Virus record (IMG/VR): IMGVR_UViG_3300045988_183942
Length of the DNA stretch: 53,299 bases
Source of the DNA: a virus
Direction: 5' to 3' (one strand)
Both the position numbers and the translations under genes were made by a program. Positions 2,653 to 33,853 of this stretch are shown here, piece by piece; within the stretch, counting starts at the first letter, position 1, and every line of letters starts with the position of its first letter. The notes beneath the pieces were generated by a model. That model made no database searches. It was given only the letters and a program-made list of their open reading frames with translations, and was not told the DNA's origin.

Positions 2653-3198
2653 ATGATTGATGAAACAGATATTCAACAAATATTAAAAACAGATGGTTTT
2701 GAATTGTCTGATGATGATTTCCAATTGCTTTTGGAGATTGTTAAAAGTCAGATTAATCAAGGTTTAGATGTTCCTATTGAACCTGTTAGTTTTACTCAAG
2801 TTGAAAATGGTTTCAATGATGATAAATTATTAGTAGACATGTTTCCAATTGATGAAATTCATTCTCTAAAAATAGGGGATTCTATTTTAATTGAAGATAA
2901 GGATTATAATATTGATTATGATGATGGTATATTATATTTTAATAGAACTTACAATGGTTTTTTAAGGTTAGAATATAGTGCAGGATTAACTACACAAGAA
3001 TACTCAACACACATAGTACCTTTAATCATCAACATGTTAGAATACAATTTAGACAATAGCTGGGATAAAAACGCATCAAGCATTAAAGAAGGAGACATAA
3101 CAATAAGTTATGATACCAGTATTGGCCAAGGAGCTTTAATACAAAAAACATTAAACGATTTAAACAATCGTTACTCAACATACATAAGGATGCTCTAA
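2653..3198 (+). CDS. Head-tail connector (gp6-like)
   Basis: Position after the capsid gene. N-terminus (TDIQQILKTDGFELSDDDFQLLLEIV) is typical of gp6-like connectors. Confidence 0.45.
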   Translation: MIDETDIQQILKTDGFELSDDDFQLLLEIVKSQINQGLDVPIEPVSFTQVENGFNDDKLLVDMFPIDEIHSLKIGDSILIEDKDYNIDYDDGILYFNRTYNGFLRLEYSAGLTTQEYSTHIVPLIINMLEYNLDNSWDKNASSIKEGDITISYDTSIGQGALIQKTLNDLNNRYSTYIRML

Positions 3199-3202
3199 GA
3201 CT

Positions 3203-3520
3203 ATGATTCCTTTTTTCAAAAATACAGATGTAGACATCTACACCTACAAAGGTTTAGATGAATATGGAGATAAAGAATATGTTTTCCGCAAAAGCATAGA
3301 AGCGGATATACAACCATTATCTAATGAATCAAGTATGCAGATATTCGGTAAAATACTGCAGGATACTTATAACTTGTATATTTCTATTCACTCACAATTA
3401 AATGATACCGACCATCTCTTAATACATAATGAATGTTACGAAGTAATAGGCAGTATTGAGGAATGGAATCACATTCTTAACTTTAAAAAAGTTGTGATAA
3501 GGAAATTAAGGAAAAAATGA
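3203..3520 (+). CDS. Head closure/head-tail adaptor protein
   Basis: Synteny and size (105 aa). Confidence 0.35.
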   Translation: MIPFFKNTDVDIYTYKGLDEYGDKEYVFRKSIEADIQPLSNESSMQIFGKILQDTYNLYISIHSQLNDTDHLLIHNECYEVIGSIEEWNHILNFKKVVIRKLRKK

Positions 3521-3924
3521 AGTGTGTAAATATGTTATTTGGAATGGATATTAGTTTTAATCCATCATACTATAAAAAATTAGGTTTGAAAGGTAAAGGT
3601 TTCCAACAACCTTTAGAAAATACTTTAGACCATGGTTTGCATGATGCAGAAACAATTATTAAACGAGAAGTTCCAAGACCTGGACATTCCAGGTCCACTA
3701 CTGGTTATAAACCAACTGGTAATCTTCAAAGAGGCATTAGTAAAAATAAACCTAACCCTTTAAAAGGGGAGTTGCATTCTAAAGCACCGTACTGGGTTTA
3801 TGTCCAGTGGGGTACTTGTAAAATGCCTGCAAATCCCTTTGTAACTCGTACAGCCAATCAAGTCGCACCATTATTTAAACAATATTTTCATGAAGAATTA
3901 AGTAAAGCTGGATTGTTAAAATGA
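3517..3924 (+). CDS. HK97 gp10-like tail-component/neck protein
   Basis: ATGA-type overlap with neighbouring genes. C-terminal PANPFVTRTAN motif resembles the HK97 gp10 family. Confidence 0.45.
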   Translation: MKCVNMLFGMDISFNPSYYKKLGLKGKGFQQPLENTLDHGLHDAETIIKREVPRPGHSRSTTGYKPTGNLQRGISKNKPNPLKGELHSKAPYWVYVQWGTCKMPANPFVTRTANQVAPLFKQYFHEELSKAGLLK

Positions 3925-4779: not shown

Positions 4780-5925
4780 ATGAGCATAAATGAAACTCCA
4801 AAAGTAAGATACTTTGAATCTGTCAGTAACCCAATATTATCTGGAGTAGGTGCAGAAATACCATGTTTCATTGGAATAACTGGTAATGCCACACCTAAAA
4901 CTGGTATACAGAAATTTAAAAACTTCCAACAAGTCTACAAAACTGTAGAAAATGGAGGTATTGGTACTGACTTAGAAAACAATCAATTATTAATTACAGT
5001 CAATGACTTTTTTAAAGAAATAAAAAAATCCAATAGTGATGATATAACTGTACCATATATTTACATTATTGATTTAGGAGCTGCAGAAGTAAGCACACCA
5101 AAACCTTGGTTAGATGCAATGAATGAAGCTAAAAAGAAAAGAGAAATACAAGTAGAATCTTATGTTGGTTTCAAAAAAGAAGATACTGCAAAAGACATAA
5201 TCAGTATTATGAATTCTGCAATAGAACTCCTTAAACAAGATTCAGAACATGGAAACCCAAGAATGGCATATTTCACAGTTATTGGTGCAAATGATGAAGA
5301 ATTAAAAACATATACTGATGATAGTCAAGAAAACTACATTCAAAATACTAGAGCAGTATTAATGCCTGCTGAAGATTTTGGTAAAAATGTAGCTAAAGTT
5401 TGCATCACACCATATTATGAAGAACCAGGATATACTGATTTTAGAACTGTCACTCCTGGAAAATATAGTAATAGGACTCGTGAAGAATGTGATGAGTTAC
5501 AAGCCGCAGGAATCACTTTTATCAATGATGAATTAGCAGCATCTGAAATACACCCAAGAATTAACCTTGCAGTGTCCACAGCTTTTGCAACTACTCCAGA
5601 TAATCGTCCTAATGATTCATTGGTTCATGCACGTAGAAATGTTGATCAACTGGTAAGGGAAGTTTATGATGCATTATATGTGCAACTCAAAAGAAATGAA
5701 ACTGAAACTAATCTCAGCTATCTTCAATCAGATATTGATGTGATAGTTGATAGGAAGATAAGTGATGGATATATGATGAATGGTACGGAAATTAAAGTAG
5801 TTGAATCTGAAATCAACCCATATGACCTTAAATGTGAAGGTGTAGCAGTACCTGTAAACAGTACTTTACTTATTGGTTTTAGCATGTACATTGAAGCACC
5901 TAACGCAACCGTAGGAGGTAATTAA
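4780..5925 (+). CDS. Contractile tail sheath protein
   Basis: 381 aa and immediately upstream of the tube gene. N-terminus VRYFESVSNPILSGVGAEIPCFIG resembles the sheath N-terminal consensus. Confidence 0.55.
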   Translation: MSINETPKVRYFESVSNPILSGVGAEIPCFIGITGNATPKTGIQKFKNFQQVYKTVENGGIGTDLENNQLLITVNDFFKEIKKSNSDDITVPYIYIIDLGAAEVSTPKPWLDAMNEAKKKREIQVESYVGFKKEDTAKDIISIMNSAIELLKQDSEHGNPRMAYFTVIGANDEELKTYTDDSQENYIQNTRAVLMPAEDFGKNVAKVCITPYYEEPGYTDFRTVTPGKYSNRTREECDELQAAGITFINDELAASEIHPRINLAVSTAFATTPDNRPNDSLVHARRNVDQLVREVYDALYVQLKRNETETNLSYLQSDIDVIVDRKISDGYMMNGTEIKVVESEINPYDLKCEGVAVPVNSTLLIGFSMYIEAPNATVGGN

Positions 5926-5927
5926 GT

Positions 5928-6332
5928 ATGAGTATAACAATAAATCCTGATGATAACACATATGACCTTGGTGAATTAAGATTAGATAAAGAAATTATTG
6001 TTTGTGAAGATTTTAATGTGGAATTCAGTAGTGAATCTGAAACTCGTCCAGCCACTAACAGTCGTGACCCTGTAGGTTACAAAGGAGGTAAAAACGAGTA
6101 TAAATGGGAAGCTAATGGGGTTTCCCCTGAATTCTTCAGTATGTTGAGGGATTATCAAAGAAACAGGAGAAACTTCCCTATTGGAGTTTTTAATTTTAAT
6201 GATGATGGTGATTATAAAGAATTGTTCACCTTGTTACATTGTCGTATTGATTCCTGCACACCTACACAGGAAGATGAAGGAATGAGTATTGATGTATCTG
6301 GTACGGCATTAAGTGTTAAGGATAAGAAATAA
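5928..6332 (+). CDS. Tail tube protein (XkdM-like)
   Basis: 134 aa, GGAGG RBS. Fits the order sheath-tube-chaperone-tape measure. Confidence 0.55.
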   Translation: MSITINPDDNTYDLGELRLDKEIIVCEDFNVEFSSESETRPATNSRDPVGYKGGKNEYKWEANGVSPEFFSMLRDYQRNRRNFPIGVFNFNDDGDYKELFTLLHCRIDSCTPTQEDEGMSIDVSGTALSVKDKK

Positions 6333-6354
6333 TTCTTATCCATATTTTTTTTTA

Positions 6355-6402
6355 GTTATGGTACGGGTGTATTTAATATAGGTTCGATTCCTAAACATAA
6401 CA
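6355..6402 (+). other. tRNA-like mini-helix (acceptor-like stem plus T-arm GGTTCGATTCC), not a full tRNA
   Basis: gttatg(g) at 6355-6361 pairs with cataac at 6396-6401. T-arm is tagg-ttcgatt-ccta at 6379-6393. No D arm or anticodon arm is present. Confidence 0.3.
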
Positions 6403-6439
6403 ATTTCATAAAAAAATTGAGAAAAAAAGGAGATTTATT

Positions 6440-7174
6440 ATGGTCAGTGAACAAACAACCAAATTTTTATGGGATGTTAAATTCCCAAATGAATGCAAAG
6501 AATTACCTTATGATTATTTAACAGAATACGAGCAAATGTTAGTGGATAAATGTGTTAATCATGAAATATTCACCGAACAAGAACAAAAAGAATTAAAACA
6601 ATTACTACACGATTACAGACCATACTTCAAAAAATACAACACGGAAGTAGCAGAACAAAACATTGAAGCAACACAACAAATCGTGAAAACACAATCACAA
6701 CTACTTGAATTAATACATGACAAATCACAATATCGTATAGACATGAATTATTATATAAACGGTCAGAGATTCCTATTACAAATGAGGATAAAACCTTACA
6801 CTGACAAACAATACCTTGAAGGAATGGGTACACAAATGGGATTATTCCGTGATTTAACCCGTGATGAGAAAAAATTAATCGCAAAAGCAGAAACAAAACA
6901 ACCAATGAGTCCTGAAGAACATAAGATGTATCAGGCATTATCAGATAAAATCATGGAAAAAGCTTATGATTTAGATAACAATTTAAAAATCATCAATGAA
7001 TTTCTTGCAGACCGTATGGAATTCGTAGATGATCCTGAAAAAACTTTCGAAGAAAACCTCCAATTCTGGGAGCAAATAGATTTAGATACTAAAACAAGTT
7101 TATTCCATGAGGTCCGTGGCAGGTTAAAATTAAATGATACTTTCACGGAAGAATTATTTCCACCTGTTAGATAG
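6440..7174 (+). CDS. Tail assembly chaperone (gpG/XkdN-like position)
   Basis: Lies between the tube and tape measure genes. AAGGAG RBS. Confidence 0.5.
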   Translation: MVSEQTTKFLWDVKFPNECKELPYDYLTEYEQMLVDKCVNHEIFTEQEQKELKQLLHDYRPYFKKYNTEVAEQNIEATQQIVKTQSQLLELIHDKSQYRIDMNYYINGQRFLLQMRIKPYTDKQYLEGMGTQMGLFRDLTRDEKKLIAKAETKQPMSPEEHKMYQALSDKIMEKAYDLDNNLKIINEFLADRMEFVDDPEKTFEENLQFWEQIDLDTKTSLFHEVRGRLKLNDTFTEELFPPVR

Positions 7175-12859: not shown

Positions 12860-14167
12860 ATGACTTATTATGTTTGTAGTGATAAGATAGATAAAAAAGA
12901 ACAATCTTACATCAATGCAGTAATCTCTGCTCTTAAATCTAAAGGAAAAAATGCTGTAGATGGTGGAATAGGTCCTAACAAGGAAGCATTAAGAAACAGT
13001 AAAGGTAGTGGAGACACTATTGTTTTTATTGTAGGTGGTGGAGCTGCAGGTTGTACATTAGCATCATTTGTAAAAAGTGTTGAAGGAAAAACAGATTATG
13101 CACATGCCATATTTGGTTATGCTGGATGGACAAGTAATCCTCATGTGAAAGAACAAGCAGCTCGTACAGAAAAACTTGTTCGTGAACATGATTGCAATTT
13201 CTTCCGTAGTTGGATGCCATCATATTACGAGGGGCATACAATTTATACATTCTGTGAAAAATACTCACAATATGTGAGTGTTTGTTGTAGTGATAAGTCT
13301 GCAGAAGATTTAGGGCAAAAGATAGCTAATGGTACTTGTGGTAAAAGTGGAGATGACTCAAATGAGGGTGGTTCTGCTTCAACTATTAAAGATGCTATTA
13401 AAGAAGTGCTCGCTTATTGGGATGCTGAAGCAGAATGTTATATTAGAGATAACAAAATGTTTATTCATAAAATCAAACCTCCTGCAAAAGGAGCATTGCA
13501 AGGATTTACAGATACAGATGGAGTAACAACTTATTTTGAAGTTGCATTACGGTCTGGTGTGAATATACAACAAGATAGTGTTCAGATTAAGGATTATAAT
13601 CCTGACACGGTTAATATGTTAACTGTACATTCTACGGTTATGGAGGATATTGTTTATCGTAATGAAAAACTTATTGAGCGTTTTGGTGAAAAACCTCAAG
13701 AGTTAGATGCTGTTAAGAAAGTACAAGTTGTTGAAACAGTTGAAACTCCTGCAACAGACACAACAACTACTGATACTGGGAGTGTTGATGATGCAACAGT
13801 AACTGAACCTGAAACCACTACTACATCCACCACAAAAACGGAGGAAGTTCCTTGTGAAACTCCTGAAGAAGTAAGAAGTTTCGCAGACCGTGAATGGGCA
13901 AAAATAAAAAGAGAAAACGGACACAGTATAGAATTAACCACGGTAGGGTTAACTACATGGAGTGAAGGTTGGTGGGTTAAAGTATATATTCCAGAATTCG
14001 ATGTTGATGATTATATGTATATTACAAAGGTTTCACAATCTTATGATGGTGAATTAAAAACTAATATAACTCTTGTTGATTATCCTCCAGGTTTTGGTGA
14101 GTTGAAAGAACAAGAAACCTCCAATGATGAGGGAACAGTAGAAACAAGTACGGAGGCAACAACATGA
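12860..14167 (+). CDS. Baseplate hub protein, XkdQ/gpD-like C-terminus, unknown Cys-rich N-domain and Thr-rich linker
   Basis: ATG at 12860 after AAGGTG. C-terminal HSIELTTVGLTTWSEGWWVKVYIPEFDVDDYMYITKVSQSY resembles the XkdQ/late-control-D family. Confidence 0.4.
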   Translation: MTYYVCSDKIDKKEQSYINAVISALKSKGKNAVDGGIGPNKEALRNSKGSGDTIVFIVGGGAAGCTLASFVKSVEGKTDYAHAIFGYAGWTSNPHVKEQAARTEKLVREHDCNFFRSWMPSYYEGHTIYTFCEKYSQYVSVCCSDKSAEDLGQKIANGTCGKSGDDSNEGGSASTIKDAIKEVLAYWDAEAECYIRDNKMFIHKIKPPAKGALQGFTDTDGVTTYFEVALRSGVNIQQDSVQIKDYNPDTVNMLTVHSTVMEDIVYRNEKLIERFGEKPQELDAVKKVQVVETVETPATDTTTTDTGSVDDATVTEPETTTTSTTKTEEVPCETPEEVRSFADREWAKIKRENGHSIELTTVGLTTWSEGWWVKVYIPEFDVDDYMYITKVSQSYDGELKTNITLVDYPPGFGELKEQETSNDEGTVETSTEATT

Positions 14168-14826
14168 AGTCAAGCAACATAACCGTAACTGATGGTAGAT
14201 TAATGAGAGCATTAAACAATGCTACACAGGCAATAGCAAACAATACAAGTTTATCTGGAAATAACACTCAAAAAGATAATGAATTACATGTGGGGAAGTT
14301 AACAAGGTTTTTTTATGAAACACAAGAAGCAGAAGTTAAATTAACTGAAAAAACAGTTACTTGTAAGTTAACAAGACCTACTGAAGGTTCTGTTAATATT
14401 TTCTTCACTCCTTTCGCAGAGTTGGAATGGGATGAAACTTTAAGAAAAACTTATTTCAAACCTTATGAAGACATAAGGTGTGTTGTTGCAAAAATTAACA
14501 ACAAATATTATGTTATTAGTTATTTCCAAAATGATAAAATCACTCCGCCATCTATCGCTACAGGAGGTTCATTATACCTGCAAGGTTACACAACAAGTCT
14601 CCAAATAAATGGGGATAATGGAGGTATTTATTTTAACACTCCAAAAATTGTTTATAAAGATTGGATGACTCCTGAACAACGAAATACCGTGCAAACAAGT
14701 GATTTAACCGAAGAGAATTTAACAAACAAAGATTATTATACAAAGGATGAAATTTATACTAAATCTGAAGTAGATGAGTTAATAAAAGAGTTAAAAGAAG
14801 AATTAGGTTTAAAAGAGGGAGGATAA
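14164..14826 (+). CDS. Baseplate protein (possible central spike/gpV-like)
   Basis: Synteny only. ATGA overlap with the upstream gene. Confidence 0.3.
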   Translation: MKSSNITVTDGRLMRALNNATQAIANNTSLSGNNTQKDNELHVGKLTRFFYETQEAEVKLTEKTVTCKLTRPTEGSVNIFFTPFAELEWDETLRKTYFKPYEDIRCVVAKINNKYYVISYFQNDKITPPSIATGGSLYLQGYTTSLQINGDNGGIYFNTPKIVYKDWMTPEQRNTVQTSDLTEENLTNKDYYTKDEIYTKSEVDELIKELKEELGLKEGG

Positions 14827-24818: not shown

Positions 24819-25559
24819 ATGGTTGCATCTTTTAAAACAAATTTATTAGATTGGTTAAAAACAAAAGTATATGTTAAAAATGAAATAGATACAAAATTGC
24901 AAAATAAATCAGATTCTAATCATACTCATACTACTGCAACAGTAAGTGCTAATGGTTTTTTGTCTAAAGAGGATAAATCTAAACTTGATGGTATTGCTAC
25001 AGAAGCTAATAAAACAGTTGTTGATAGTTCATTGAGTAGTTCATCAACTAATCCTGTGCAGAATAAGGTTGTAAATAGTGCTTTGAGTGGTAAAGCTAAC
25101 AGTAGTCACAGTCACAGTATCAGCAATATTACTAATCTTCAATCAGCATTGGATAGTAAATCAAAAACAGGACATACTCATGATGACCGTTATTATACTG
25201 AAACCGAAATGAATACTAAGTTGAATGGTAAAGCTAACAGTAGTCACACACATACTGCATCTCAAATATCTGACTTAACAGTATCAACACATACACTTGC
25301 AAACGGAGCAAAACTATACAAATACGGAAAAATCGTGATGTGTGTTTTATTCAATGTTGCTTTTTCAGGAAAAAAGGCTTATACTTGGAATGGCCTATTT
25401 ACAAATATTCCTTCTACATATCAACCAATTGGTGGTACAAATCCAATTTATGCTCATTCATCTGATATAATGTTATCTGTACAGGGACCAAATATTCAAA
25501 TATATCCTCATAAAACATCAGGTAGTGTATTTAATACTTTAGTTTGGATTACTGCTTAA
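24819..25559 (+). CDS. Tail fibre protein with HxH repeats (receptor-binding tip candidate)
   Basis: HTHT, SHSHS, GHTHD and SHTHT motifs. SANGFLSKEDKSKLDGI motif. 22-nt intragenic repeat at 25089 and 25226. Confidence 0.55.
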   Translation: MVASFKTNLLDWLKTKVYVKNEIDTKLQNKSDSNHTHTTATVSANGFLSKEDKSKLDGIATEANKTVVDSSLSSSSTNPVQNKVVNSALSGKANSSHSHSISNITNLQSALDSKSKTGHTHDDRYYTETEMNTKLNGKANSSHTHTASQISDLTVSTHTLANGAKLYKYGKIVMCVLFNVAFSGKKAYTWNGLFTNIPSTYQPIGGTNPIYAHSSDIMLSVQGPNIQIYPHKTSGSVFNTLVWITA

Positions 25560-26823
25560 ATATTTGTATAAGAAAATAGTATGTTAATATGAGCAATATC
25601 CCATAAAGGAAAATAAACATCCTATGCATTGAAGGTAGCATTGTTGGTGTAAAACCAATAATAATACTCACAATAAATCCTATAATCAATAATAGTAATG
25701 TTGAAAATCCATTTTTTTTATTTTTAAATTTTATTATATTATAAACTCCATACAAAATACAAAATGTGATAATAATATAAAATAATGTAAATAATAAACT
25801 TGTGGAATTACTTACAAGACTATAAGAGTCTGTACTTAAAAAGAAATAATTCCATTCAGGAATAATATTAAAAATTAATAATAAGTTAATTATTAGACAA
25901 ATTATAAATGGGAATAAAGTAATCAAAGCATTCCATTTATTATTGCTTATTTTATAAACATATAATCCAAAAGATAATAAGAATAATAAACAAATTAAAA
26001 TTGATTCACTTATAAAAAGTCTGTAAAAAGAACTCACTCCCATATTTATTTTGTTAAAAATGTTTAACTCTCCAAATGATGGCCACCAAGTATTTGTTTC
26101 AGCAATTAATCTTAATTGGTTGCCAGGGCATAAAAAAATAATTAATCCACAACAAATAATTAAAAATAATAAAATCAGTAATGTGTTATTAATTTTTTTG
26201 TAAGAATAATAACAATAACCAATAAGTAGTACATATATTATGAAACAGGTAATTAATCCCTGTTCATGATTACAAGCAAAAAATAAACTAAAAACTAAAA
26301 TAGCATACAACAATATATTCTTTGATTTATTATAATCATTATTTTGGAGTATGTAATATTTAACTAAATAAAAATGAACCAATATGAAAAATAAAGGCCA
26401 GAGATAATTAAGACTAATTGCAATAGCCCCATCACCCATGGCTTCAAATACAGGGATATAAAATATTGAAACAAGAATTACAGAAATTATATTATTTTTT
26501 AGATTTGAATCTTTTGTGAAAAATCTTGGAATAATCCAAGCCATCATAACAAGAACTAAACTGTTTAAAAATACCCATATGATTATAGGAAGATAAGATA
26601 GAAACAATAAAACAAATTCTATTAAAAATCTAGAACTCCATGAATAATATCTGTGGTGAACAAGATTTAAAATTTGATTTAAACCATTTTCTGTGATTAA
26701 TGCTCTAAAATAAAGATCATCATTAACATATCCTAATCTAAAATGAATTATAAATAAAGTTACAAATAAGACTATAAAAGGAATTAAAGGAATGATTTTT
26801 TTTAATTTTAGAGTTTTATTCAT
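25549..26823 (-). CDS. Polytopic membrane protein, GT-C-like glycosyltransferase/surface-modification candidate
   Basis: 424 aa and almost entirely hydrophobic helices. YVNDDLYF lies in the first loop. Transcribed against the surrounding late-gene (tail and lysis) genes, all of which are on the + strand. Confidence 0.4.
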   Translation of the reverse strand: MNKTLKLKKIIPLIPFIVLFVTLFIIHFRLGYVNDDLYFRALITENGLNQILNLVHHRYYSWSSRFLIEFVLLFLSYLPIIIWVFLNSLVLVMMAWIIPRFFTKDSNLKNNIISVILVSIFYIPVFEAMGDGAIAISLNYLWPLFFILVHFYLVKYYILQNNDYNKSKNILLYAILVFSLFFACNHEQGLITCFIIYVLLIGYCYYSYKKINNTLLILLFLIICCGLIIFLCPGNQLRLIAETNTWWPSFGELNIFNKINMGVSSFYRLFISESILICLLFLLSFGLYVYKISNNKWNALITLFPFIICLIINLLLIFNIIPEWNYFFLSTDSYSLVSNSTSLLFTLFYIIITFCILYGVYNIIKFKNKKNGFSTLLLLIIGFIVSIIIGFTPTMLPSMHRMFIFLYGILLILTYYFLIQIFKQ

Positions 26824-27170
26824 AAAAATTAATATGTGGAATATGATAGTTATTCTTTTCTATTTACTATTGAATTTATTTTATAAGTGAAACAGCTTGG
26901 TTAATGATTTTGTATTTTTTAAGTTTACATTTTTTTTTAAAACAAAGATAATTCTTCAATGAGGATATCTTTTTTTTATCATATTTAATTTATTTTTTTT
27001 AAGTTATCATCATTTTTATTTTAAACTACTTTAAAAAAAATGATTTGGAAGGGGGGGAAGAAAGTGTAATAACAGTACCTTTTGTTTGAATGATGAATGG
27101 ATTATTTTTAAATATTTTTTTTTAAAATGCAACAGAATAAATACTATTTTTTTTTAAAGGAGCGTAAAAC

Positions 27171-28097
27171 ATGATTAGAGAGTATACTAATTATACAAAT
27201 TATAGTAATATTTGCAATAGAATTGCTTATTGGCTTGTTAATAATAATAAGAAATTTAATGTTAGGCAAGTATATGGTTATATGAATCGTACGGCAGATT
27301 ATGGAACGATTATTAAAGTAATTAAGGAAAGAGGTACAAATTACCAATCTGACAGTCTTATAACTGAATTTGTGGAATGTGCCATACATGATAATAAAGA
27401 TTTAAGCTTTTTACCAAATTATGTGATTGATAAAAATGGTAAGAAGTATATGAAAGATACTTATGTTGATATGTGTCGCAGAGTATCAGCATATGAAGTA
27501 TTAAATGGTGTGAGTCCTGCAATAGTATATTTAACTGGCAATACATCAGTACAAAATACTACAAACAATAATAAATTATATAATTATTTAACAACTTCAG
27601 GCTGTGCAGGTATGGGACAATGCACACCATATTATTGTGCTTGTAATAGTCTACAACAAGCATTTTACCGTTTAACTGGCATTCATATATCAGAATCTAC
27701 AATAGCAAGTGTAGCTGGAACAACTACAGCTGGAACTGGACATCAAGGTATTAATACAACTGTTGCATGGTTTAATCGCAAATATGGAAAAAATATTAAA
27801 ATTACTTGGAAAAACTTCAATGATTTAGGAAGTTCTAATTCAGCAAGATGGAATAAATTAAACGAATATGCAACAAAAGGAGCAGTATTTTGTCACATAT
27901 TGTACCGTAATAAATATGGGCATTATGAAGTACTTAAATCAGTAAATGGTAATAATGTAACTGTTTTAAACAGTTTAGGAAACAGATGCAGTAAACCAGC
28001 ATATTGTGGATATATAGAAACTCGTAGTAAGTCAAATCAATTATCTTATATGAGAGGAATTAGCCAACCGAGTGTTGCAATCTTAACAAAAGGGTGA
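27171..28097 (+). CDS. Pseudomurein endoisopeptidase (PeiW/PeiP-like, peptidase C71) with N-terminal pseudomurein-binding repeats
   Basis: 308 aa. PMBR-like YMKDTYVDMCRRVSAYEVLNGVSPAIVY. C-terminal Cys/His-containing domain (GMGQCTPYYCACNS ... GHYEV). AAGGAG RBS. Confidence 0.65.
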   Translation: MIREYTNYTNYSNICNRIAYWLVNNNKKFNVRQVYGYMNRTADYGTIIKVIKERGTNYQSDSLITEFVECAIHDNKDLSFLPNYVIDKNGKKYMKDTYVDMCRRVSAYEVLNGVSPAIVYLTGNTSVQNTTNNNKLYNYLTTSGCAGMGQCTPYYCACNSLQQAFYRLTGIHISESTIASVAGTTTAGTGHQGINTTVAWFNRKYGKNIKITWKNFNDLGSSNSARWNKLNEYATKGAVFCHILYRNKYGHYEVLKSVNGNNVTVLNSLGNRCSKPAYCGYIETRSKSNQLSYMRGISQPSVAILTKG

Positions 28098-28102
28098 GAA
28101 TT

Positions 28103-28288
28103 ATGACAGAAATGAAAGAAGGTTTAAAAGAAACATTAGATAATTTACAACAAGAATGTAATAAATTGTATGAAGAATATGGTTTGATAGATGAAGTTAT
28201 GGATTTGCAATTATTAATTAATTCATTGAGAAACAAGTTTGATTTAGTTGATGAATCAGAACAGGTATACAATGAATTTGTACAATAA
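28103..28288 (+). CDS. Hypothetical small coiled-coil protein in the lysis cassette
   Basis: ATG at 28103 after GGGTGAG. Followed by a strong hairpin. Confidence 0.45.
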   Translation: MTEMKEGLKETLDNLQQECNKLYEEYGLIDEVMDLQLLINSLRNKFDLVDESEQVYNEFVQ

Positions 28289-28310
28289 TAACATAATTGG
28301 GAACTGTTGG

Positions 28311-28349
28311 AAGTTTATCAACTAATGGTTGATAAACTTATTTTTTTTA
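28311..28349 (+). terminator. Hairpin terminator
   Basis: 12-bp perfect stem aagtttatcaac/gttgataaactt with a 5-nt loop, followed by a T8 run. Confidence 0.65.
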
Positions 28350-28377
28350 TAAAAATAAGTAGTAATAAATAGAAACC

Positions 28378-28385
28378 TTTATATA
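28378..28385 (+). promoter_or_regulatory. Archaeal TATA-box-like element TTTATATA
   Basis: Consensus-like TATA about 37 nt upstream of the small ORF at 28422. Confidence 0.3.
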
Positions 28386-28421
28386 CTATGGTAACCAATA
28401 TAATAATAGAACTACGAGGAG

Positions 28422-28511
28422 GTGGAAAACATTGATAGAAAAGAGTTAGTTGCATGGCTTGGACTAATTGTCCAAGTTGCAACATTAATATACACAATAT
28501 TGATGGGATAA
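28422..28511 (+). CDS. 29-aa single-TM peptide (below the ORF-track cutoff)
   Basis: GTG start overlapping GAGGAGG. Peptide MENIDRKELVAWLGLIVQVATLIYTILMG. Followed by hairpin gatggga-(8 nt)-tcccatc. Start codon assignment is weak. Confidence 0.25.
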   Translation: MENIDRKELVAWLGLIVQVATLIYTILMG

Positions 28512-28587
28512 AAAAATCCCATCATCAAATTTAAAATTTAAAATTTTTATTATTTAAATTTTTTCCCAAAAAAGAGGTGGATGAAAA

Positions 28588-28734
28588 ATGTTAACAATAG
28601 CAAACATCGTAAATATAATAATAACCATATTATTCATAATATTAGTAATATCTGAAAGAAACAATCCTAAAAAACTACCAATAATATTATGTGGAATATC
28701 AATTGTATTAACAATTTTAAGCTTTGTCCTTTAA
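28588..28734 (+). CDS. 48-aa two-TM protein, holin-like candidate (below the ORF-track cutoff)
   Basis: ATG is 7 nt after AGAGGTGG. Peptide MLTIANIVNIIITILFIILVISERNNPKKLPIILCGISIVLTILSFVL. A terminator hairpin overlaps the stop. Confidence 0.5.
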   Translation: MLTIANIVNIIITILFIILVISERNNPKKLPIILCGISIVLTILSFVL

Positions 28735-28755
28735 AAAGACAAAGCTATTTTTTTT
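28721..28755 (+). terminator. Hairpin terminator gctttgtc-(9 nt)-gacaaagc plus T-run
   Basis: 8-bp perfect stem followed by tattttttttt. Confidence 0.55.
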
Positions 28756-28773
28756 TAAAAGGAGAATGAAATT

Positions 28774-29115
28774 ATGGAAAGAAGCACAATAAAATTAGAA
28801 GTAAGTTTAATTAATAAAATAAAAGAAATACAAGCATTAAACGGTTACAAATCAGTAAATGAAACAGTAAAACATATCCTGCCACAAGGAACAGTAACAC
28901 CTGAAACAGTAACTTATGAACAACCAGCATTCACATTAAACGATAAAGAAACTTATAAAAATGTTTCATGGGATGAATTAAAAAAAGCAGAAATTGGTAA
29001 AACATGGATTAATAATGAAGAGGCAACTGTAATATACAAAGATGAAATCGGAGCATTAATAAGATTTGTTGATGCATTTGGGGAGGTTTATTTAAATTAC
29101 TTCCACTTTTTATGA
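28774..29115 (+). CDS. Hypothetical protein, possible N-terminal ribbon-helix-helix
   Basis: AAGGAG RBS. STIKLEVSLINKIKEIQALNGYKSVNETVKHIL has an RHH-like pattern. Confidence 0.35.
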   Translation: MERSTIKLEVSLINKIKEIQALNGYKSVNETVKHILPQGTVTPETVTYEQPAFTLNDKETYKNVSWDELKKAEIGKTWINNEEATVIYKDEIGALIRFVDAFGEVYLNYFHFL

Positions 29116-29460
29116 AAAAGGAAATTTTTTCATTTTTAAAGAATTACCTTTTTATATATTTAATACTACTATAATTTCAATTTTTTTTACCAATATGAGA
29201 TTATCAAATAATTTAATTTAGAATAAATAGGTATTTAATTATTAAAATCTATACTTTCACAAAACAGAAGGTTATATTATTATTGATAATTTAATTAAAT
29301 ATAGTTTGAATATGAATTCAAAAACAGGATTTTTAAGTATTTAATTTTGTTTTGAATGAATAATTGGAGGAATATTTAAAACTATAATTACAAAATATTT
29401 ATAATAATTAAAATATATAGTATATCAAAGGAGATTTTATTTTTAGTGTAGGTTTTAAAA

Positions 29461-30216
29461 ATGTCAGATTTAGAATTCAAGAAACATTATTTGCAAGAGA
29501 TTATTTTTAAAGTAGATTTTAGAAATATTGGTGAGTTATTGGGAATGGAATCTAATCCTGATAAGTTTGTAAATATTATAAAAAAGGAATTTCCTAAGGT
29601 AAAGGGTATTGCTCAGCAAAATAAAGTTGAAATTTCAGCAGAAAACCCAGAAATAGAAAATATTGAGCAAAATAATATATGGGCTTATACAACTGCTGAT
29701 GATTCAAAATTTATTGAGTTATCTATGAATCATATTGCTATTTCATATGATGGCACTAAATACAAATCTCATTATGAATTAATTGAAGATATTAAATTAA
29801 TTATTAATGCATTAAAATGTTATGATGTGCATACGGTCAATAAAATTGGATTAAGATATATTAATGAAGTTTCGCCAGAAGTAGAAATTATTAATTGGGA
29901 TGATTGGATTAATCCTAAATTACATAATTTTAATTCTATAAATAATGAGTTAAAATTAATGAGAGTTTTAACTCAATCTGAATATCAAATAAGAGGATAC
30001 AACTTGGATTTCACATATGGACAATTTAATTTGAATTATCCAAATATTGAAATTAAAAATGATTTTGTTTTAGATTATGATTGTTATACTTCTTCTTTAA
30101 CTGATAGTGGTGATTTAATTAAAATTTTTGAAGAAATGCATGATATTATTAAATTATTGTTTAATGAGAGTATTGGAAAGGAATTATTTAAAGATTTAAA
30201 AGGTGAGTTAGAATGA
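29461..30216 (+). CDS. TIGR04255-like uncharacterised protein (cassette gene A)
   Basis: 251 aa. N-terminal KKHYLQEIIFKVDF and internal IGLRYINEV resemble the TIGR04255 family signature as I recall it. Confidence 0.4.
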   Translation: MSDLEFKKHYLQEIIFKVDFRNIGELLGMESNPDKFVNIIKKEFPKVKGIAQQNKVEISAENPEIENIEQNNIWAYTTADDSKFIELSMNHIAISYDGTKYKSHYELIEDIKLIINALKCYDVHTVNKIGLRYINEVSPEVEIINWDDWINPKLHNFNSINNELKLMRVLTQSEYQIRGYNLDFTYGQFNLNYPNIEIKNDFVLDYDCYTSSLTDSGDLIKIFEEMHDIIKLLFNESIGKELFKDLKGELE

Positions 30217-30695
30217 ATGGGACTGTTACACACTCTATTGCTGAAAATTCTTTTAAAATTCCTAGAATATCTAATAGATTAAAATTTGCAGATAAATTCA
30301 AAAGAAATAATGAGAATACTGTATTATCTACAAAATATGCAAAAGTAAATTATGGTGATTTTCTTCAAAAAAGTATTAAATTAGAATTGTTTTTAAATTC
30401 AACATTTAATATAGAATCTAAACGTGAAGATTTGATTTCATTTATTATTAATAATAATTTATTAGATATAATAAAAGAGTTACCAAATAATCTTGAAGAA
30501 TATTTTGATACTTTAGATTTGGAAATTCATTTAGAAAATAAATGGAATAATAAAAAATGGATTGTTGTTAAAGTTTTTACTAAACTTGATGGAGAATCTG
30601 CAAGTAATAAATTAGATTTAATTGAAGATAAATTATTTGAAAAGTATCAAGATGATTTTTTAGATAATATATTATTATCTGTGGAGTTTGAATGA
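30213..30695 (+). CDS. Unknown protein (cassette gene B)
   Basis: ATGA overlap with both neighbours. 160 aa. No recognisable nucleotidyltransferase motif. Confidence 0.5.
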   Translation: MNGTVTHSIAENSFKIPRISNRLKFADKFKRNNENTVLSTKYAKVNYGDFLQKSIKLELFLNSTFNIESKREDLISFIINNNLLDIIKELPNNLEEYFDTLDLEIHLENKWNNKKWIVVKVFTKLDGESASNKLDLIEDKLFEKYQDDFLDNILLSVEFE

Positions 30696-31105
30696 GTTCT
30701 GAAGAAAAATTTGACTGGTGTGAATATTATAATTTCGCTGATTCTTTTTCAAGTTCAGATAATCCTGCTGAATTAAGAAGTGGTATTAGTAGATTTTATT
30801 ATTCTGCTTTTTGTACTTGTAGAGATTATATTATTGAACATAGGTTATGGGGTGATGATGAAGAACTTGAAAAGATTATGACCTCCAAATCTTCAAAGGT
30901 TCATGAAAAAACATATGAAATTTTTCATGACAATCATTTTTTAAATAGACAAAAACACGGTATGAAAATTGCGAGACTTCTATTGGAACTTCGTGATAAA
31001 AGAAATGATGCGGATTATAAGTCGGAAAAGTATAATGTAAAATATAATCATGCTTTTGTCAAAGCCAGGACAAAAAAACTTTTCGATGAGTTTAAAAAAT
31101 TATAA
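30692..31105 (+). CDS. HEPN-domain protein, UPF0332-like (cassette gene C)
   Basis: GISRFYYSAFCTCRDYII ... KVHEKT ... LRDKRNDADY matches the UPF0332/HEPN helix pattern (sRaYYa.F ... H ... R..aDY). Confidence 0.5.
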   Translation: MSSEEKFDWCEYYNFADSFSSSDNPAELRSGISRFYYSAFCTCRDYIIEHRLWGDDEELEKIMTSKSSKVHEKTYEIFHDNHFLNRQKHGMKIARLLLELRDKRNDADYKSEKYNVKYNHAFVKARTKKLFDEFKKL

Positions 31106-31107
31106 AT

Positions 31108-31355
31108 TTGTTTGAATTTGATAACATCGATTTGGAATTAATTGAAGATATGAAAAAATTATTTGATGGTTTGAATAATGAAGAAGTTTGTGCATTAACT
31201 TATTTTACTTTCTCGGAAACCACTACTGAATCTTTAATTAGAATTAGAATTATTGAAAATAGAGAAAAAATAGCAGTAAATTTATTTAAAAGAATAAAAT
31301 TAGTGTAGGGAAAGCATCTGAAATTGCAGGTTTACATTTAAAAGAGTTTTACTGA
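31108..31355 (+). pseudogene. UPF0175-like (VapB-type antitoxin-like) gene, disrupted by a -1 frame change and truncated
   Basis: The frame ending at TAG 31306-31308 reads ...EKIAVNLFKRIKLV*. The -1 frame from 31290 reads KNKISVGKASEIAGLHLKEFY*, which matches the gk.SlgkAAeiaGl core. The junction lies in an A-run. Confidence 0.35.
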
Positions 31356-31410: not shown

Positions 31411-32553
31411 TTATCTTTTTTTGAATTTATCTAAAACATTACATAACCCATCATCAAACAACATTTCCTCAATAGCAGACAACCTATTATTCATAGTCTT
31501 CACTTCAACCTCTTTTTCCTGATATTTACCTTCTAACTCCAGATATTCTGGAGATTTGTAAGTAATATTATTCCAATTAATCATTAAACAATCAAGATGA
31601 TTAATATATTCTTCACGGAGTTTTTCAGGATCTTCCATAAAATAACTACTGTGCGTTGCATCTTTTCCTCTGCCTTGTAGAGCATCTACAAATTCGATAC
31701 TGCAATTATCGTTGAATAATTGGCTTGCATGGAATTTACGAAGCATATGGGGTCTAAATCGGATGTATGTTCCTTTTTTGCCTAATCCTAATTTATTGTT
31801 TAATTGTTCAAAAGATATGCTTGTGTAGTTTTCAGTTAAATTAAATAGTTTATCAGTGTTTTTTAAATCACGATTTGATGAAATAAGATAATTAATTATT
31901 TCTGATGTAGATTCTGGTGATGAAAAGGTTGTGTAAAATTTATTGGTTTTAGGACGTCGAAGTTCCCAAGTAGGAACTACATCTTTTTTGTCTTTAAGTA
32001 CATTTAATACATCGTAAATATTATTTTCTTGATGATATTGTTTAGTAGCATCTATAAAATTTTGTATTGTGAAATTTAATGTTTCTATTCTACTACAACC
32101 GCTGCTGCTGATAAAGAGGATTATTGCTCTCATTCGAGTGTTACTGATGTCTAATGCTTTTTTAATGATTTCATGGTCTGGTAAATCTTTAAATGTGATG
32201 GGTTTGTTTTGGTTAACATTTTTCATAGAATAGATTGGGAGTTGGTGGATTTCAATATCGTAATGTTTGTAGATGGTTAATATTTTTGAGAACATTATTC
32301 TTGCAGATCCAACAAGGTAATTTTCATAAATATATGATCTATAGTTCATTAATCTTTTTTTTAATGTACGATTTTTCCAACGAATGCCTTGTTCTTCTTC
32401 TTTTTCTGCTTCTTGTATGAGGTCTACTAATGATTTTTGTTGATATTGTGTGTATGTTTTAATATAACTTTTGTATACATTTATTGTTGTTTGTTTGAGG
32501 TTTCGGGATTTTGCAAAATCAGTTAGCAATTCTTTATCATTTTTCATATACAT
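31411..32553 (-). CDS. int: Tyrosine recombinase/integrase
   Basis: 380 aa. SSGCSRIETL (Arg box), HMLRKFHAS (HxxR-type box) and a C-terminal ...ATHSSYF Tyr region. Confidence 0.7.
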   Translation of the reverse strand: MYMKNDKELLTDFAKSRNLKQTTINVYKSYIKTYTQYQQKSLVDLIQEAEKEEEQGIRWKNRTLKKRLMNYRSYIYENYLVGSARIMFSKILTIYKHYDIEIHQLPIYSMKNVNQNKPITFKDLPDHEIIKKALDISNTRMRAIILFISSSGCSRIETLNFTIQNFIDATKQYHQENNIYDVLNVLKDKKDVVPTWELRRPKTNKFYTTFSSPESTSEIINYLISSNRDLKNTDKLFNLTENYTSISFEQLNNKLGLGKKGTYIRFRPHMLRKFHASQLFNDNCSIEFVDALQGRGKDATHSSYFMEDPEKLREEYINHLDCLMINWNNITYKSPEYLELEGKYQEKEVEVKTMNNRLSAIEEMLFDDGLCNVLDKFKKR

Positions 32554-32967: not shown

Positions 32968-33480
32968 ATGAATAATGAAATTGAATATCATCCTGAAAAA
33001 TTAAAATCAGTAATACATTACATCATAAGTAAATGTGGTTTAAATCATAATGTTGGTAGAACAGTAATGTACAAATTATTGTATTTTTCTGACTTCAATT
33101 TTTATGAAATATATGAAACTCCAATTACTGGAGAAACATATATTAAAAAACCAAACGGCCCAATATCTTCACATTTTCTTGATTTAAAAGATGAATTAAT
33201 AAGTGAAGGAAAAATAAAAGAAGACGTGGAAAGAGTAATTGACTATCCCAAATATAAATATACTTCTCTTATAGGGCCTGATGTTACTAATTTAAGTAAA
33301 CAGGAATTAGAAGTTATAGATGATACTATTAACAAATTATCTGATATGAGTGCAAAGGAAATTAGTAATTATTCTCATGGAGATTTACCATGGCGAATTG
33401 CAGAAACTAATGCTGAATTAGATTATGAGTATGTTTTTTATCGTGATCCAGAATATATTGTGAGGGAATATGATGAGTAA
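32968..33480 (+). CDS. Panacea/DUF4065 (SocA/PanA-like) antitoxin-domain protein
   Basis: RTVMYKLLYFSDFNFYEIYETPITGETYIKKPNGPISSHF fits the DUF4065 core (KLqKLLYf.d ... GP). GGAGG RBS. Confidence 0.55.
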   Translation: MNNEIEYHPEKLKSVIHYIISKCGLNHNVGRTVMYKLLYFSDFNFYEIYETPITGETYIKKPNGPISSHFLDLKDELISEGKIKEDVERVIDYPKYKYTSLIGPDVTNLSKQELEVIDDTINKLSDMSAKEISNYSHGDLPWRIAETNAELDYEYVFYRDPEYIVREYDE

Positions 33481-33853
33481 ACTGGATAATTATCAGTTTG
33501 ATACTCACCCTCTTTTTGATGATGAATTTAATAAAATTATTAATAGGCATAAATGCCCTACTTTAAAAGAGGATTTTGAAAGGTTAAAATTTGCATTGGT
33601 GCAATATTTGGAGGATTTAAATAGGTTTCCAGTTAATATATGTAATAGGATTGCAGGGTTAGATAGTAAAGTAAAATTTCCAGCTTTTATTGTTAAGAAT
33701 TTCCGTTGTAAAGGAATTAATAAAGGGTCTCGTTCTGGTTTTAGAATTACTTTTTTATTTTCCCGTGAAGATAATCTTTTTTATTTTGTTGAAATTTATA
33801 ATAAAAATAAGAAACCTGTTGAGGATAAAGAAAGAATTAATGAGTTATTTTAG
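33470..33853 (+). CDS. RelE/ParE-superfamily-like toxin
   Basis: Overlaps the upstream gene by 11 nt. KGINKGSRSGFRITFLFSREDNLFYFVEIYNKNKKPVEDKERI fits the G.sgGyRviy...l.iy.K pattern. Confidence 0.5.
   Translation: MMSKLDNYQFDTHPLFDDEFNKIINRHKCPTLKEDFERLKFALVQYLEDLNRFPVNICNRIAGLDSKVKFPAFIVKNFRCKGINKGSRSGFRITFLFSREDNLFYFVEIYNKNKKPVEDKERINELF

Follow-up and report, generated by a model that had tools for sequence, protein, structure and literature searches.

What do three tightly overlapping genes do for the virus that carries them beside its integrase gene? The virus is represented by IMG/VR record IMGVR_UViG_3300045988_183942, a stretch of 53,299 nucleotides that we refer to as the window, and the genes are called A, B and C here, in their order along it (Table 1). 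The original prediction held that A encodes a TIGR04255-like protein and C a UPF0332-type HEPN protein, and that the three genes together could be an undescribed virus-borne defence or toxin system. We compared the three proteins with known families and structures, and with homologous loci in other genomes and metagenomes. The interpretation that we favor, and to which we give about an even chance, is that the three genes form a tripartite module resembling a toxin-antitoxin system, in which C would be the toxin, B would neutralise it and A would be an interchangeable accessory, and that the module would serve provirus addiction, exclusion, or both. This interpretation is based on sequence comparisons and predicted structures.

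A, B and C are genuine, coupled genes that are subject to purifying selection. The A/B and B/C junctions both consist of the tetranucleotide ATGA, a 4-nt overlap of one gene's start with the stop of the gene before it. The ratio of nonsynonymous to synonymous substitution rates (dN/dS) was below 1 for all three genes, with close-range values of 0.19-0.37. The values were 0.30-0.37 for A and 0.19-0.38 for C, and B was the most relaxed of the trio at long range (0.6-0.7). The three open reading frames (ORFs), their coordinates, their overlaps and the 345-bp AT-rich spacer in front of A were exactly as first described, and every peptide motif that had been quoted was found in the translations.

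Three converging lines of evidence (a modeled fold, the sequence relatives and a sequence profile) indicate that C belongs to the HEPN superfamily. The AlphaFold2 model of C has six helices and a mean predicted local distance difference test (pLDDT) score of 91.1. Its top eight Foldseek matches in the PDB were all HEPN proteins (probability 0.84-1.0, TM-score 0.45-0.65, E 0.06-0.7), among them SsR10 (2q00), 1wwp, HepT (7bxo, 6m6w and 6m6u), AF0298 (2hsb) and SO_3166 (5yep). An exhaustive HMMER search with a profile of the C family found 2,203 representative clusters at E ≤ 1e-3. We retrieved 100 full-length relatives, all at E < 1e-10, and 57 of these matched PF05168 (best E 2.4e-9). C itself gave no PF05168 match above the gathering score, and its own sequence likewise had no significant match in NCBIfam or the PDB; its membership is by transitivity, because its relatives match and the fold agrees. 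A broadened profile of C, compared with the PDB, matched the HEPN domain-containing protein 9xbd (7.8e-9), a retron HEPN protein (1.4e-5) and AF0298 (0.035).

The conserved residues of C resemble those of a particular group of HEPN proteins. Seven residues were invariant across the 100 relatives: R29, R34, Y36, H71, R104, D108 and Y109. C does not have the Rx4-6H motif; the corresponding segment reads R104-N-D-A-D108-Y109, and the position of the His is taken by the invariant D108-Y109. In AF0298-like HEPN-T proteins and in AbiV, the motif His is lost and the Arg is retained, and a second His, between helices 2 and 3, has been proposed to rebuild the RNase site (PMC3710099). HEPN-T proteins have been proposed to be the toxins of toxin-antitoxin systems associated with MNT nucleotidyltransferases (PMC3710099). 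C fits this description, as R104 is kept, the motif His is gone and the invariant H71 is N-terminal of the motif. In the model of C, H71 is in a short-helix segment between a long helix (residues 25-49) and the motif-bearing helix (residues 89-109). The call of C as a UPF0332-type HEPN protein was therefore right. By extension from the description of the family, C would be the effector of the cassette, an RNase predicted to need no metal and to rely on R104 together with the alternative His71.

B consists of two parts with opposite charge. Residues 1-44 form a basic, disordered N-terminal tail (isoelectric point (pI) 10.4), and residues 45-160 form an acidic folded domain (pI 4.5) with the C-terminus ...LSVEFE. 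B is thus acidic with a basic tail, and C is near-neutral. In the AlphaFold2 model, the folded domain (pLDDT 83-91) has three helices followed by a beta-beta-alpha-beta arrangement. Its fold matches were generic ferredoxin-like domains, the C-terminal domains of CDF transporters, and none was a nucleotidyltransferase; a fold search of BFVD with B was uninformative. B had been said not to be an MNT protein, and we agree, on two grounds: there is no GS...DxD motif and no Pol-beta fold. Since B is not a nucleotidyltransferase, neutralisation by AMPylation is not expected. B had no sequence match in Pfam, NCBIfam, PADLOC or the PDB, and the family of B-like domains (the B-domain family) likewise had none in Pfam or the PDB. 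Because B is directly upstream of C with a 4-nt overlap, the two proteins are made together. We infer that B is the neutraliser of C because it is acidic, its gene comes first and the two proteins are co-made. It would be the cognate partner of C, most likely neutralising it by direct binding through the acidic folded domain.

Genes like B and C are also paired elsewhere. We scanned metagenomes with an alignment of the C superfamily and recovered 80 loci, to which we added three loci from IMG/VR; the HEPN ORF could be called in 74. There was a B-domain gene directly 5' of the HEPN gene in 59 of these 74 loci, typically with a 4-nt overlap. With an hhalign probability of 95.3% (E 2.1e-8), the middle genes of the environmental loci aligned with B over the entire folded domain, as far as the terminal residues ...EFE. 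An MNT neighbor was present in only one of the 74. Because a B-domain gene adjoins the HEPN gene in so many loci, B-C is a conserved two-gene core. The pair has the layout of a type II toxin-antitoxin system: two small, adjacent, co-directional genes that stay paired, with a mobile, sporadic distribution and variable contexts.

The complete trio was also found outside this virus. Among the 44 loci with sufficient upstream sequence, TIGR04255 was directly 5' of B in 17, with tight gaps and in loci of 25-63% GC (also given as 29-63%); the count rises to 19 if two divergent relatives of TIGR04255 are included. The sole IMG/VR contig with a TIGR04255 homolog (L066) carries a TIGR04255-B-HEPN trio, the middle gene of which gave no match to a narrow B profile and matched the broadened B-domain profile at 6e-12. 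The trio is kept as a unit, at approximately 50% identity, in non-proviral chromosomal settings in Methanobacteriaceae. One of these trios (L070-L072; 236, 196 and 137 amino acids) is near a classical MNT-HEPN pair, a DUF2971 gene and a methyltransferase gene, and another (L076-L077) encodes proteins of 239, 156 and 139 amino acids. Because of this recurrence in chromosomes, in L066 and in the metagenome loci, we conclude that the A-B-C composition is real, widespread and not confined to methanogens. Chance falls far short of explaining a trio that recurs with unchanged overlaps on hundreds of contigs, in diverged chromosomes and in 17 metagenome loci. It occurs in variable or accessory settings, and not in virion or replication modules. 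An apparent fusion of A and B in locus L144 was rejected; it is an over-extended ORF. At L070-L072, the MNT-HEPN pair (PF01909 and PF05168; positions 3079-3748, minus strand) is about 500 bp from A-B-C, and the methyltransferase is of the N6/N4 type; the region looks like a small defence or toxin-antitoxin island in a Methanobacteriaceae chromosome.

Judged from its sequence, A is clearly a member of the TIGR04255 family, as had been proposed. It matches the NCBIfam model over its full length (residues 6-246 on model positions 2-251 of 252; E 6.7e-27) with 94.9 bits against a cutoff of 30. The family has seven invariant residues (Y101, N135, G187, P194, D205, Y206 and D207), which cluster in the motifs GLRYIN, YGxFNxxYP and LDYDC, and four near-invariant residues (R132, Y133, N190 and C208). 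The role of A is the weakest link in our interpretation, and the genes that follow its homologs elsewhere bear on it.

Most of the TIGR04255 genes in other genome loci head operons of a different kind. Among 53 genome loci anchored on A outside the Methanobrevibacter smithii virus, 46 had a TIGR04255 gene, then an ORF of 39-89 amino acids, and then a gene for a protein of about 200 amino acids that we call P200. An example is L022 (positions 4986-6518), one of the loci L010-L064, whose hosts are very diverse bacteria and archaea. The small ORF is poorly conserved, and its sole invariant residue is a C-terminal Tyr in a loose T-D/E-x-Y-x-K stretch. P200 has the invariant elements QGD, Q-x-C-D, P, R, D-F-K, E, F, Y and R and a C-terminus rich in R and E. 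There was no match to P200 in Pfam, NCBIfam, PADLOC or the PDB, and its profile had no match in the window or in the loci of the M. smithii virus. The partners of TIGR04255 in these operons thus matched no PADLOC model, the small ORF included. Homology of P200 to B or C was rejected (hhalign probabilities below 1%), a resemblance of B to the small middle ORFs of these operons in the stretch 'LSTKY.K' was unsupported (hhalign 0.2%), and profile comparison likewise did not support a relationship of B to the middle genes of locus L017 or of the M. smithii virus MSTV1. We found no published name for the TIGR04255-small ORF-P200 operon. Its flanks contained 147 Pfam families among 150 flanking proteins, with none present more than twice; in the absence of recurrent flanking families, a defence-island setting is unsupported, and the flanks fit a self-contained, sporadically inserted mobile module.

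Two further types of downstream genes were found behind TIGR04255. In three Methanobrevibacter loci (L008, L018 and L019), it is followed by an antitoxin-sized ORF of 79 amino acids and a 95-amino-acid ParE-like toxin, which matches PF15781 (3.4e-5) and PF05016 (1.9e-4), both below the gathering threshold and mutually consistent. In L017, it is followed by a 129-amino-acid ORF and a C-like HEPN gene (hhalign 95%). L008 is a 53-kb contig of a variant of the same virus, in which a second TIGR04255 operon (positions 13066-14368; first gene 260 amino acids) comes right after the integrase gene and is followed by a DUF2283 gene. On a neighbor-joining tree of TIGR04255, the HEPN-type and ParE-type operons are nested among those of the P200 type, and the ParE type is sister to a HEPN type. 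Because partner types are interleaved on the tree, the downstream pair has been exchanged while TIGR04255 stayed. The cassette is not an isolated oddity; it represents one form among a much broader range of operons that begin with TIGR04255. The role of A is probably independent of the toxin chemistry, because TIGR04255 heads operons with quite different last two genes. A could be an interchangeable third component, and we speculate that it might be a sensor or regulator that times the release of the pair, or a chaperone-like stabiliser.

The constancy of A in front of varying pairs could also mean that A is the real effector, a TIGR04255 enzyme or toxin with a conserved polar pocket, and that the downstream pairs are interchangeable addiction or regulatory modules. 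The invariant Y101, N135, D205, Y206 and D207, together with the near-invariant residues, would suit a catalytic or ligand site. On the other side, the B-HEPN pair was present without TIGR04255 in most of the assessable loci (25-27 of 44), which indicates that the pair is autonomous and A facultative. In addition, profile searches of Pfam and the PDB found no likeness of A to any enzyme or toxin family. We regard this alternative as quite improbable.

A broader proposal is that TIGR04255 marks an unrecognised class of modular tripartite conflict systems in bacteria, archaea and viruses. A sensor, regulator or chaperone of about 250 amino acids would plug into a B-domain protein with HEPN, an antitoxin with ParE, or a small ORF with P200. 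B-domain proteins would then take the place of MNT as a new family of proteinaceous antitoxins against HEPN, and among viruses this methanogen virus would provide the first example of such a system, serving provirus addiction or the exclusion of superinfecting viruses. We offer this as a tentative idea that is on balance doubtful.

Several points weigh against a toxin-antitoxin role for the cassette. A, B and C match no defence model of PADLOC-DB v2.0.0 significantly (for C there was only HEPN_IX, at 0.0078 over 22 residues). The Foldseek E-values of C are modest despite the high probabilities, and the alternative-His catalytic site invoked to make up for the missing Rx4-6H His is itself a prediction (PMC3710099). 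Domain searches of B revealed no HTH, RHH or AbrB domain, and an autoregulatory DNA-binding domain was not recognised. The A family had no sequence relative in Pfam, PADLOC or the PDB, even with profiles of 25 and 45 members at lenient thresholds. Solitary B-domain genes occur in other virus-like contigs (see below). Finally, a homolog of C that is 45% identical and has the full R-x-x-R-N-x-A-D-Y motif (P0017, in L073-L075) is solo beside an ornithine carbamoyltransferase gene, a housekeeping setting with no A or B upstream, and 12 HEPN-anchored metagenome loci showed no partner. The solo homolog and the 12 partner-less loci indicate that at least some C-like members are tolerated without a neutraliser.

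Some of these points would be explained if the cassette were a non-toxic regulatory module. C would then be a catalytically inactive HEPN protein that binds RNA or nucleotides and, with B and A, tunes host or viral expression, for example the choice between lysogeny and lysis or the turnover of RNA. HEPN domains that lack the motif may act non-catalytically (PMC3710099), the motif His is absent from C, C-like genes exist without partners, and an RHH-like regulator gene is just upstream of the cassette. Nonetheless, seven polar or aromatic residues that are invariant across 100 relatives, including R104, H71 and D108-Y109, argue for an active site. Toxin-antitoxin-like modules are typically mobile, sporadically distributed and tightly paired with a partner gene, as C is with the gene upstream of it, and in sister operons a ParE-like toxin occupies the same position as C. 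For these reasons, it seems unlikely that the module is regulatory and non-toxic.

A further alternative concerns whose toxin is neutralised. B, and perhaps A, could be a counter-defence that neutralises host HEPN toxins of the same family and shields the virus from abortive infection. There are non-proviral chromosomal trios in related hosts, and there are solitary B-domain genes among small, early-type genes on virus-like contigs. The authors who described MSTV1 proposed that orphan viral antitoxins counteract host toxin-antitoxin systems (PMC11375127). However, an anti-toxin strategy needs no C, and the virus keeps the full trio with an intact C under purifying selection. Moreover, identity between the copies in the virus and those in chromosomes is only about 50%, which makes cross-neutralisation uncertain. 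We consider counter-defence improbable as the function of the cassette. The solitary genes (L079, 3001-3297; L080, 1009-1305) encode 98-amino-acid proteins that correspond to the folded domain of B alone, without A or C. Their contigs resemble those of viruses or plasmids; the genes belong to a series of small genes that all point the same way, with a CoiA_N-domain gene nearby, and they may be orphan antitoxin-like genes. Truncated variants of B had been considered as an argument against an antitoxin role, and this argument was dropped: one is from an error-rich assembly, and the others are the genuine B-domain-only genes just mentioned.

To return to the toxin-antitoxin interpretation, A-B-C would be a self-contained, horizontally mobile conflict module that a temperate M. 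smithii virus carries as accessory cargo near its integrase gene, at the edge of the element. In a lysogen, it would help to retain the provirus through post-segregational killing, would abort infection by other viruses or keep them out, or would do both. The functions first proposed for the cassette (abortive infection, superinfection exclusion or a tripartite toxin-antitoxin module) agree with the comparative genomics, which lends them weight.

Of the three proteins, B matches "hypothetical protein vir080_00070 [Somnumvirus timidum]" with 100% identity, and the exact A, B and C proteins are present on 322, 290 and 184 contigs, respectively, including M. smithii chromosomes of approximately 1.85 Mb. 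Because of the identical vir080 proteins and the occurrence in M. smithii chromosomes, the window represents a described temperate tailed virus or provirus of this host. Public records name A a "TIGR04255 family protein" (RefSeq) and B and C "hypothetical". We found no literature account of TIGR04255, Somnumvirus, vir080 or UPF0332 together with HEPN; the annotations of the vir080 compendium lay outside that search.

Table 1. Features of the cassette and its surroundings in the window
Feature	Positions	Strand	Remarks
Glycosyltransferase gene	25549-26823	-	424 aa; PF19528 (GT_STM0557_N)
Pseudomurein endoisopeptidase (lysis) gene	27171-28097		
RHH-like gene	28774-29115	+	113 aa; weak NikR N-terminal matches, E 0.008
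Intergenic region 5' of A	29116-29460		345 bp, no ORF, AT-rich; presumed operon promoter region
Gene A	29461-30216	+	251 aa, pI 4.8; TIGR04255 family; published as vir080_00069
Gene B	30213-30695	+	160 aa; B-domain family; published as vir080_00070
Gene C	30692-31105	+	137 aa; predicted HEPN-T (PF05168/UPF0332, AF0298-like); published as vir080_00071
ORF D	31108-31308	+	66 aa, TTG start, no obvious ribosome-binding site; possible fourth gene
Integrase gene	31411-32553	-	
SocA/Panacea-domain antitoxin gene and overlapping ORF	32968-33853	+	antitoxin 170 aa, PF13274 E 5.8e-20; ORF 127 aa at 33470-33853

The cassette had been placed in an accessory island between the lysis cassette and the integrase gene, and the positions of the endoisopeptidase and integrase genes agree with this (Table 1). 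The region 27156-29116, with the endoisopeptidase gene and the RHH-like gene, is 72.5% identical to MSTV1, and nucleotide similarity ends at about 29116, where the cassette region starts. In integrated copies, the cassette is the final block ahead of host genes (PdxS and PfkB), and identity to the window stops about 540 nt past C, within the 3' part of the integrase ORF. The description as an accessory island is therefore correct, because the cassette is at the edge of the element, the region is not shared with MSTV1, and a second candidate pair is located across the integrase gene. This pair, the Panacea-domain gene and the overlapping 127-amino-acid ORF, is probably a toxin-antitoxin pair of the PanA type. 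In L002 and L004-L007, identity ends near 31645, within the integrase ORF and about 235 nt from its 3' end, and a 75-amino-acid C-terminal fragment of the integrase abuts host genes. Either there is an attachment (att) site inside the integrase gene, and integration splits this gene in the manner of SSV-type integrases, or these proviruses are truncated.

The sequences that directly flank the genes were also considered. GC content is about 0.22 in the kilobase that holds the 345-bp spacer, and the spacer had no Rfam match and contained no tandem array. An RNA antitoxin or structured RNA in the spacer was rejected because these searches were empty. A terminator-like hairpin (I5, 29115-29153; 16-nt arms, 88% complementary) was assigned to the upstream RHH-like gene. 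MSTV1 has a conserved counterpart of the RHH-like protein, which bears the annotation 'putative DNA-binding protein' there. The gene in the window is 345 bp 5' of the cassette, and its product could be a regulator. ORF D is not part of the conserved trio: it is annotated in several proviral contigs and not in others, and it is missing after C in L070 and L076. It has a weak PADLOC match to the candidate-system protein PDC-M19A (E 6.6e-4). The virus has a second variable region, located between the tail genes and the lysis gene, in which the glycosyltransferase gene swaps with an Acyl_transf_3 acyltransferase gene and PTR-domain genes among the variants L001-L008. This exchange is suggestive of surface-modification (lysogenic-conversion) cargo.

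If the toxin-antitoxin interpretation is true, it matters beyond this virus. Bacteria and archaea carry TIGR04255 genes sporadically, and the sources that we searched assign the family no function; the TIGR04255, B-domain and P200 families would together gain a working hypothesis, and a new, non-enzymatic control of HEPN-T toxins would be defined. The cassette, present on approximately 300 contigs, would be a concrete candidate for the means by which the very widespread proviruses of M. smithii persist stably or keep competitors out. TIGR04255 operons are reasonable subjects for experimental screening because genuine defence systems have repeatedly been recognised by this pattern, in which the first gene stays constant and the effectors behind it are swapped.

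How does the cassette compare with known systems? The closest precedent is ORF2-4 of MSTV1, also a temperate tailed virus of M. smithii. These three co-directional genes are in a hypervariable region beside the integrase gene and were described as a co-transcribed putative toxin-antitoxin system with a HEPN toxin, for which a role as an addiction module in provirus maintenance was proposed (Baquero et al. 2024; PMC11375127). In lysogens, expression of ORF2 and ORF4 is high, and 73 of 73 colonies kept the provirus (PMC11375127). The original prediction had stated that no such system was described and none was known from a methanogen virus. The second part was too strong, because the MSTV1 module means that a three-gene HEPN toxin-antitoxin system in an M. 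smithii virus is not a new idea. ORF4 of MSTV1 belongs to the same HEPN superfamily as C and shares the R-x-x-A-D-Y motif (hhalign probability 95%), but the two are not alignable by BLAST. In contrast to A, ORF2 has 91 amino acids and is not a TIGR04255 protein (hhalign 0.3%). In contrast to B, ORF3 has 119 amino acids (hhalign 0.3%), and the B-domain profile also found no similarity to it. The MSTV1 module is, in addition, on the opposite side of the integrase gene. The logic of the cassette thus parallels that of the MSTV1 module, and the parts differ.

HEPN-MNT systems (HepT-MntA, type VII-like; PF05168 or DUF86) likewise combine a small HEPN protein that is presumed to be an RNase toxin with a small partner, and they are mobile and sporadic. 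HepT structures rank among the best fold matches of C. Unlike these systems, the cassette has a partner that is not MNT (PF01909), a HEPN protein without the Rx4-6H His, and an added third gene, TIGR04255. The AF0298-like HEPN-T proteins and AbiV, an abortive-infection protein, share with C the retained motif Arg, the absent His and a second conserved His (PMC3710099). They differ in that C is below the PF05168 threshold and that neither the B-domain partner nor the link to TIGR04255 is part of the description of that group (PMC3710099). The TIGR04255 component, the B-domain as a regular partner of HEPN-T, and the modular TIGR04255 operon family all appear to be undescribed.

The TIGR04255-small ORF-P200 operon resembles the cassette in the family of its first gene, in its tightly coupled three-gene layout and in its sporadic occurrence in bacteria and archaea; it differs in its last two genes, which show no relationship to B or C. 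Tripartite toxin-antitoxin systems with a third regulator or chaperone, which include omega-epsilon-zeta, PaaR-PaaA-ParE and toxin-antitoxin systems with a SecB-like chaperone, are found on mobile elements and prophages. They resemble the cassette in having three co-transcribed small genes, two of which are a toxin and an antitoxin and the third of which modulates them. To our knowledge, TIGR04255 has no similarity to the regulators or chaperones of those systems. Unlike in those systems, the third component in TIGR04255 operons is the element that is conserved across unrelated toxin pairs.

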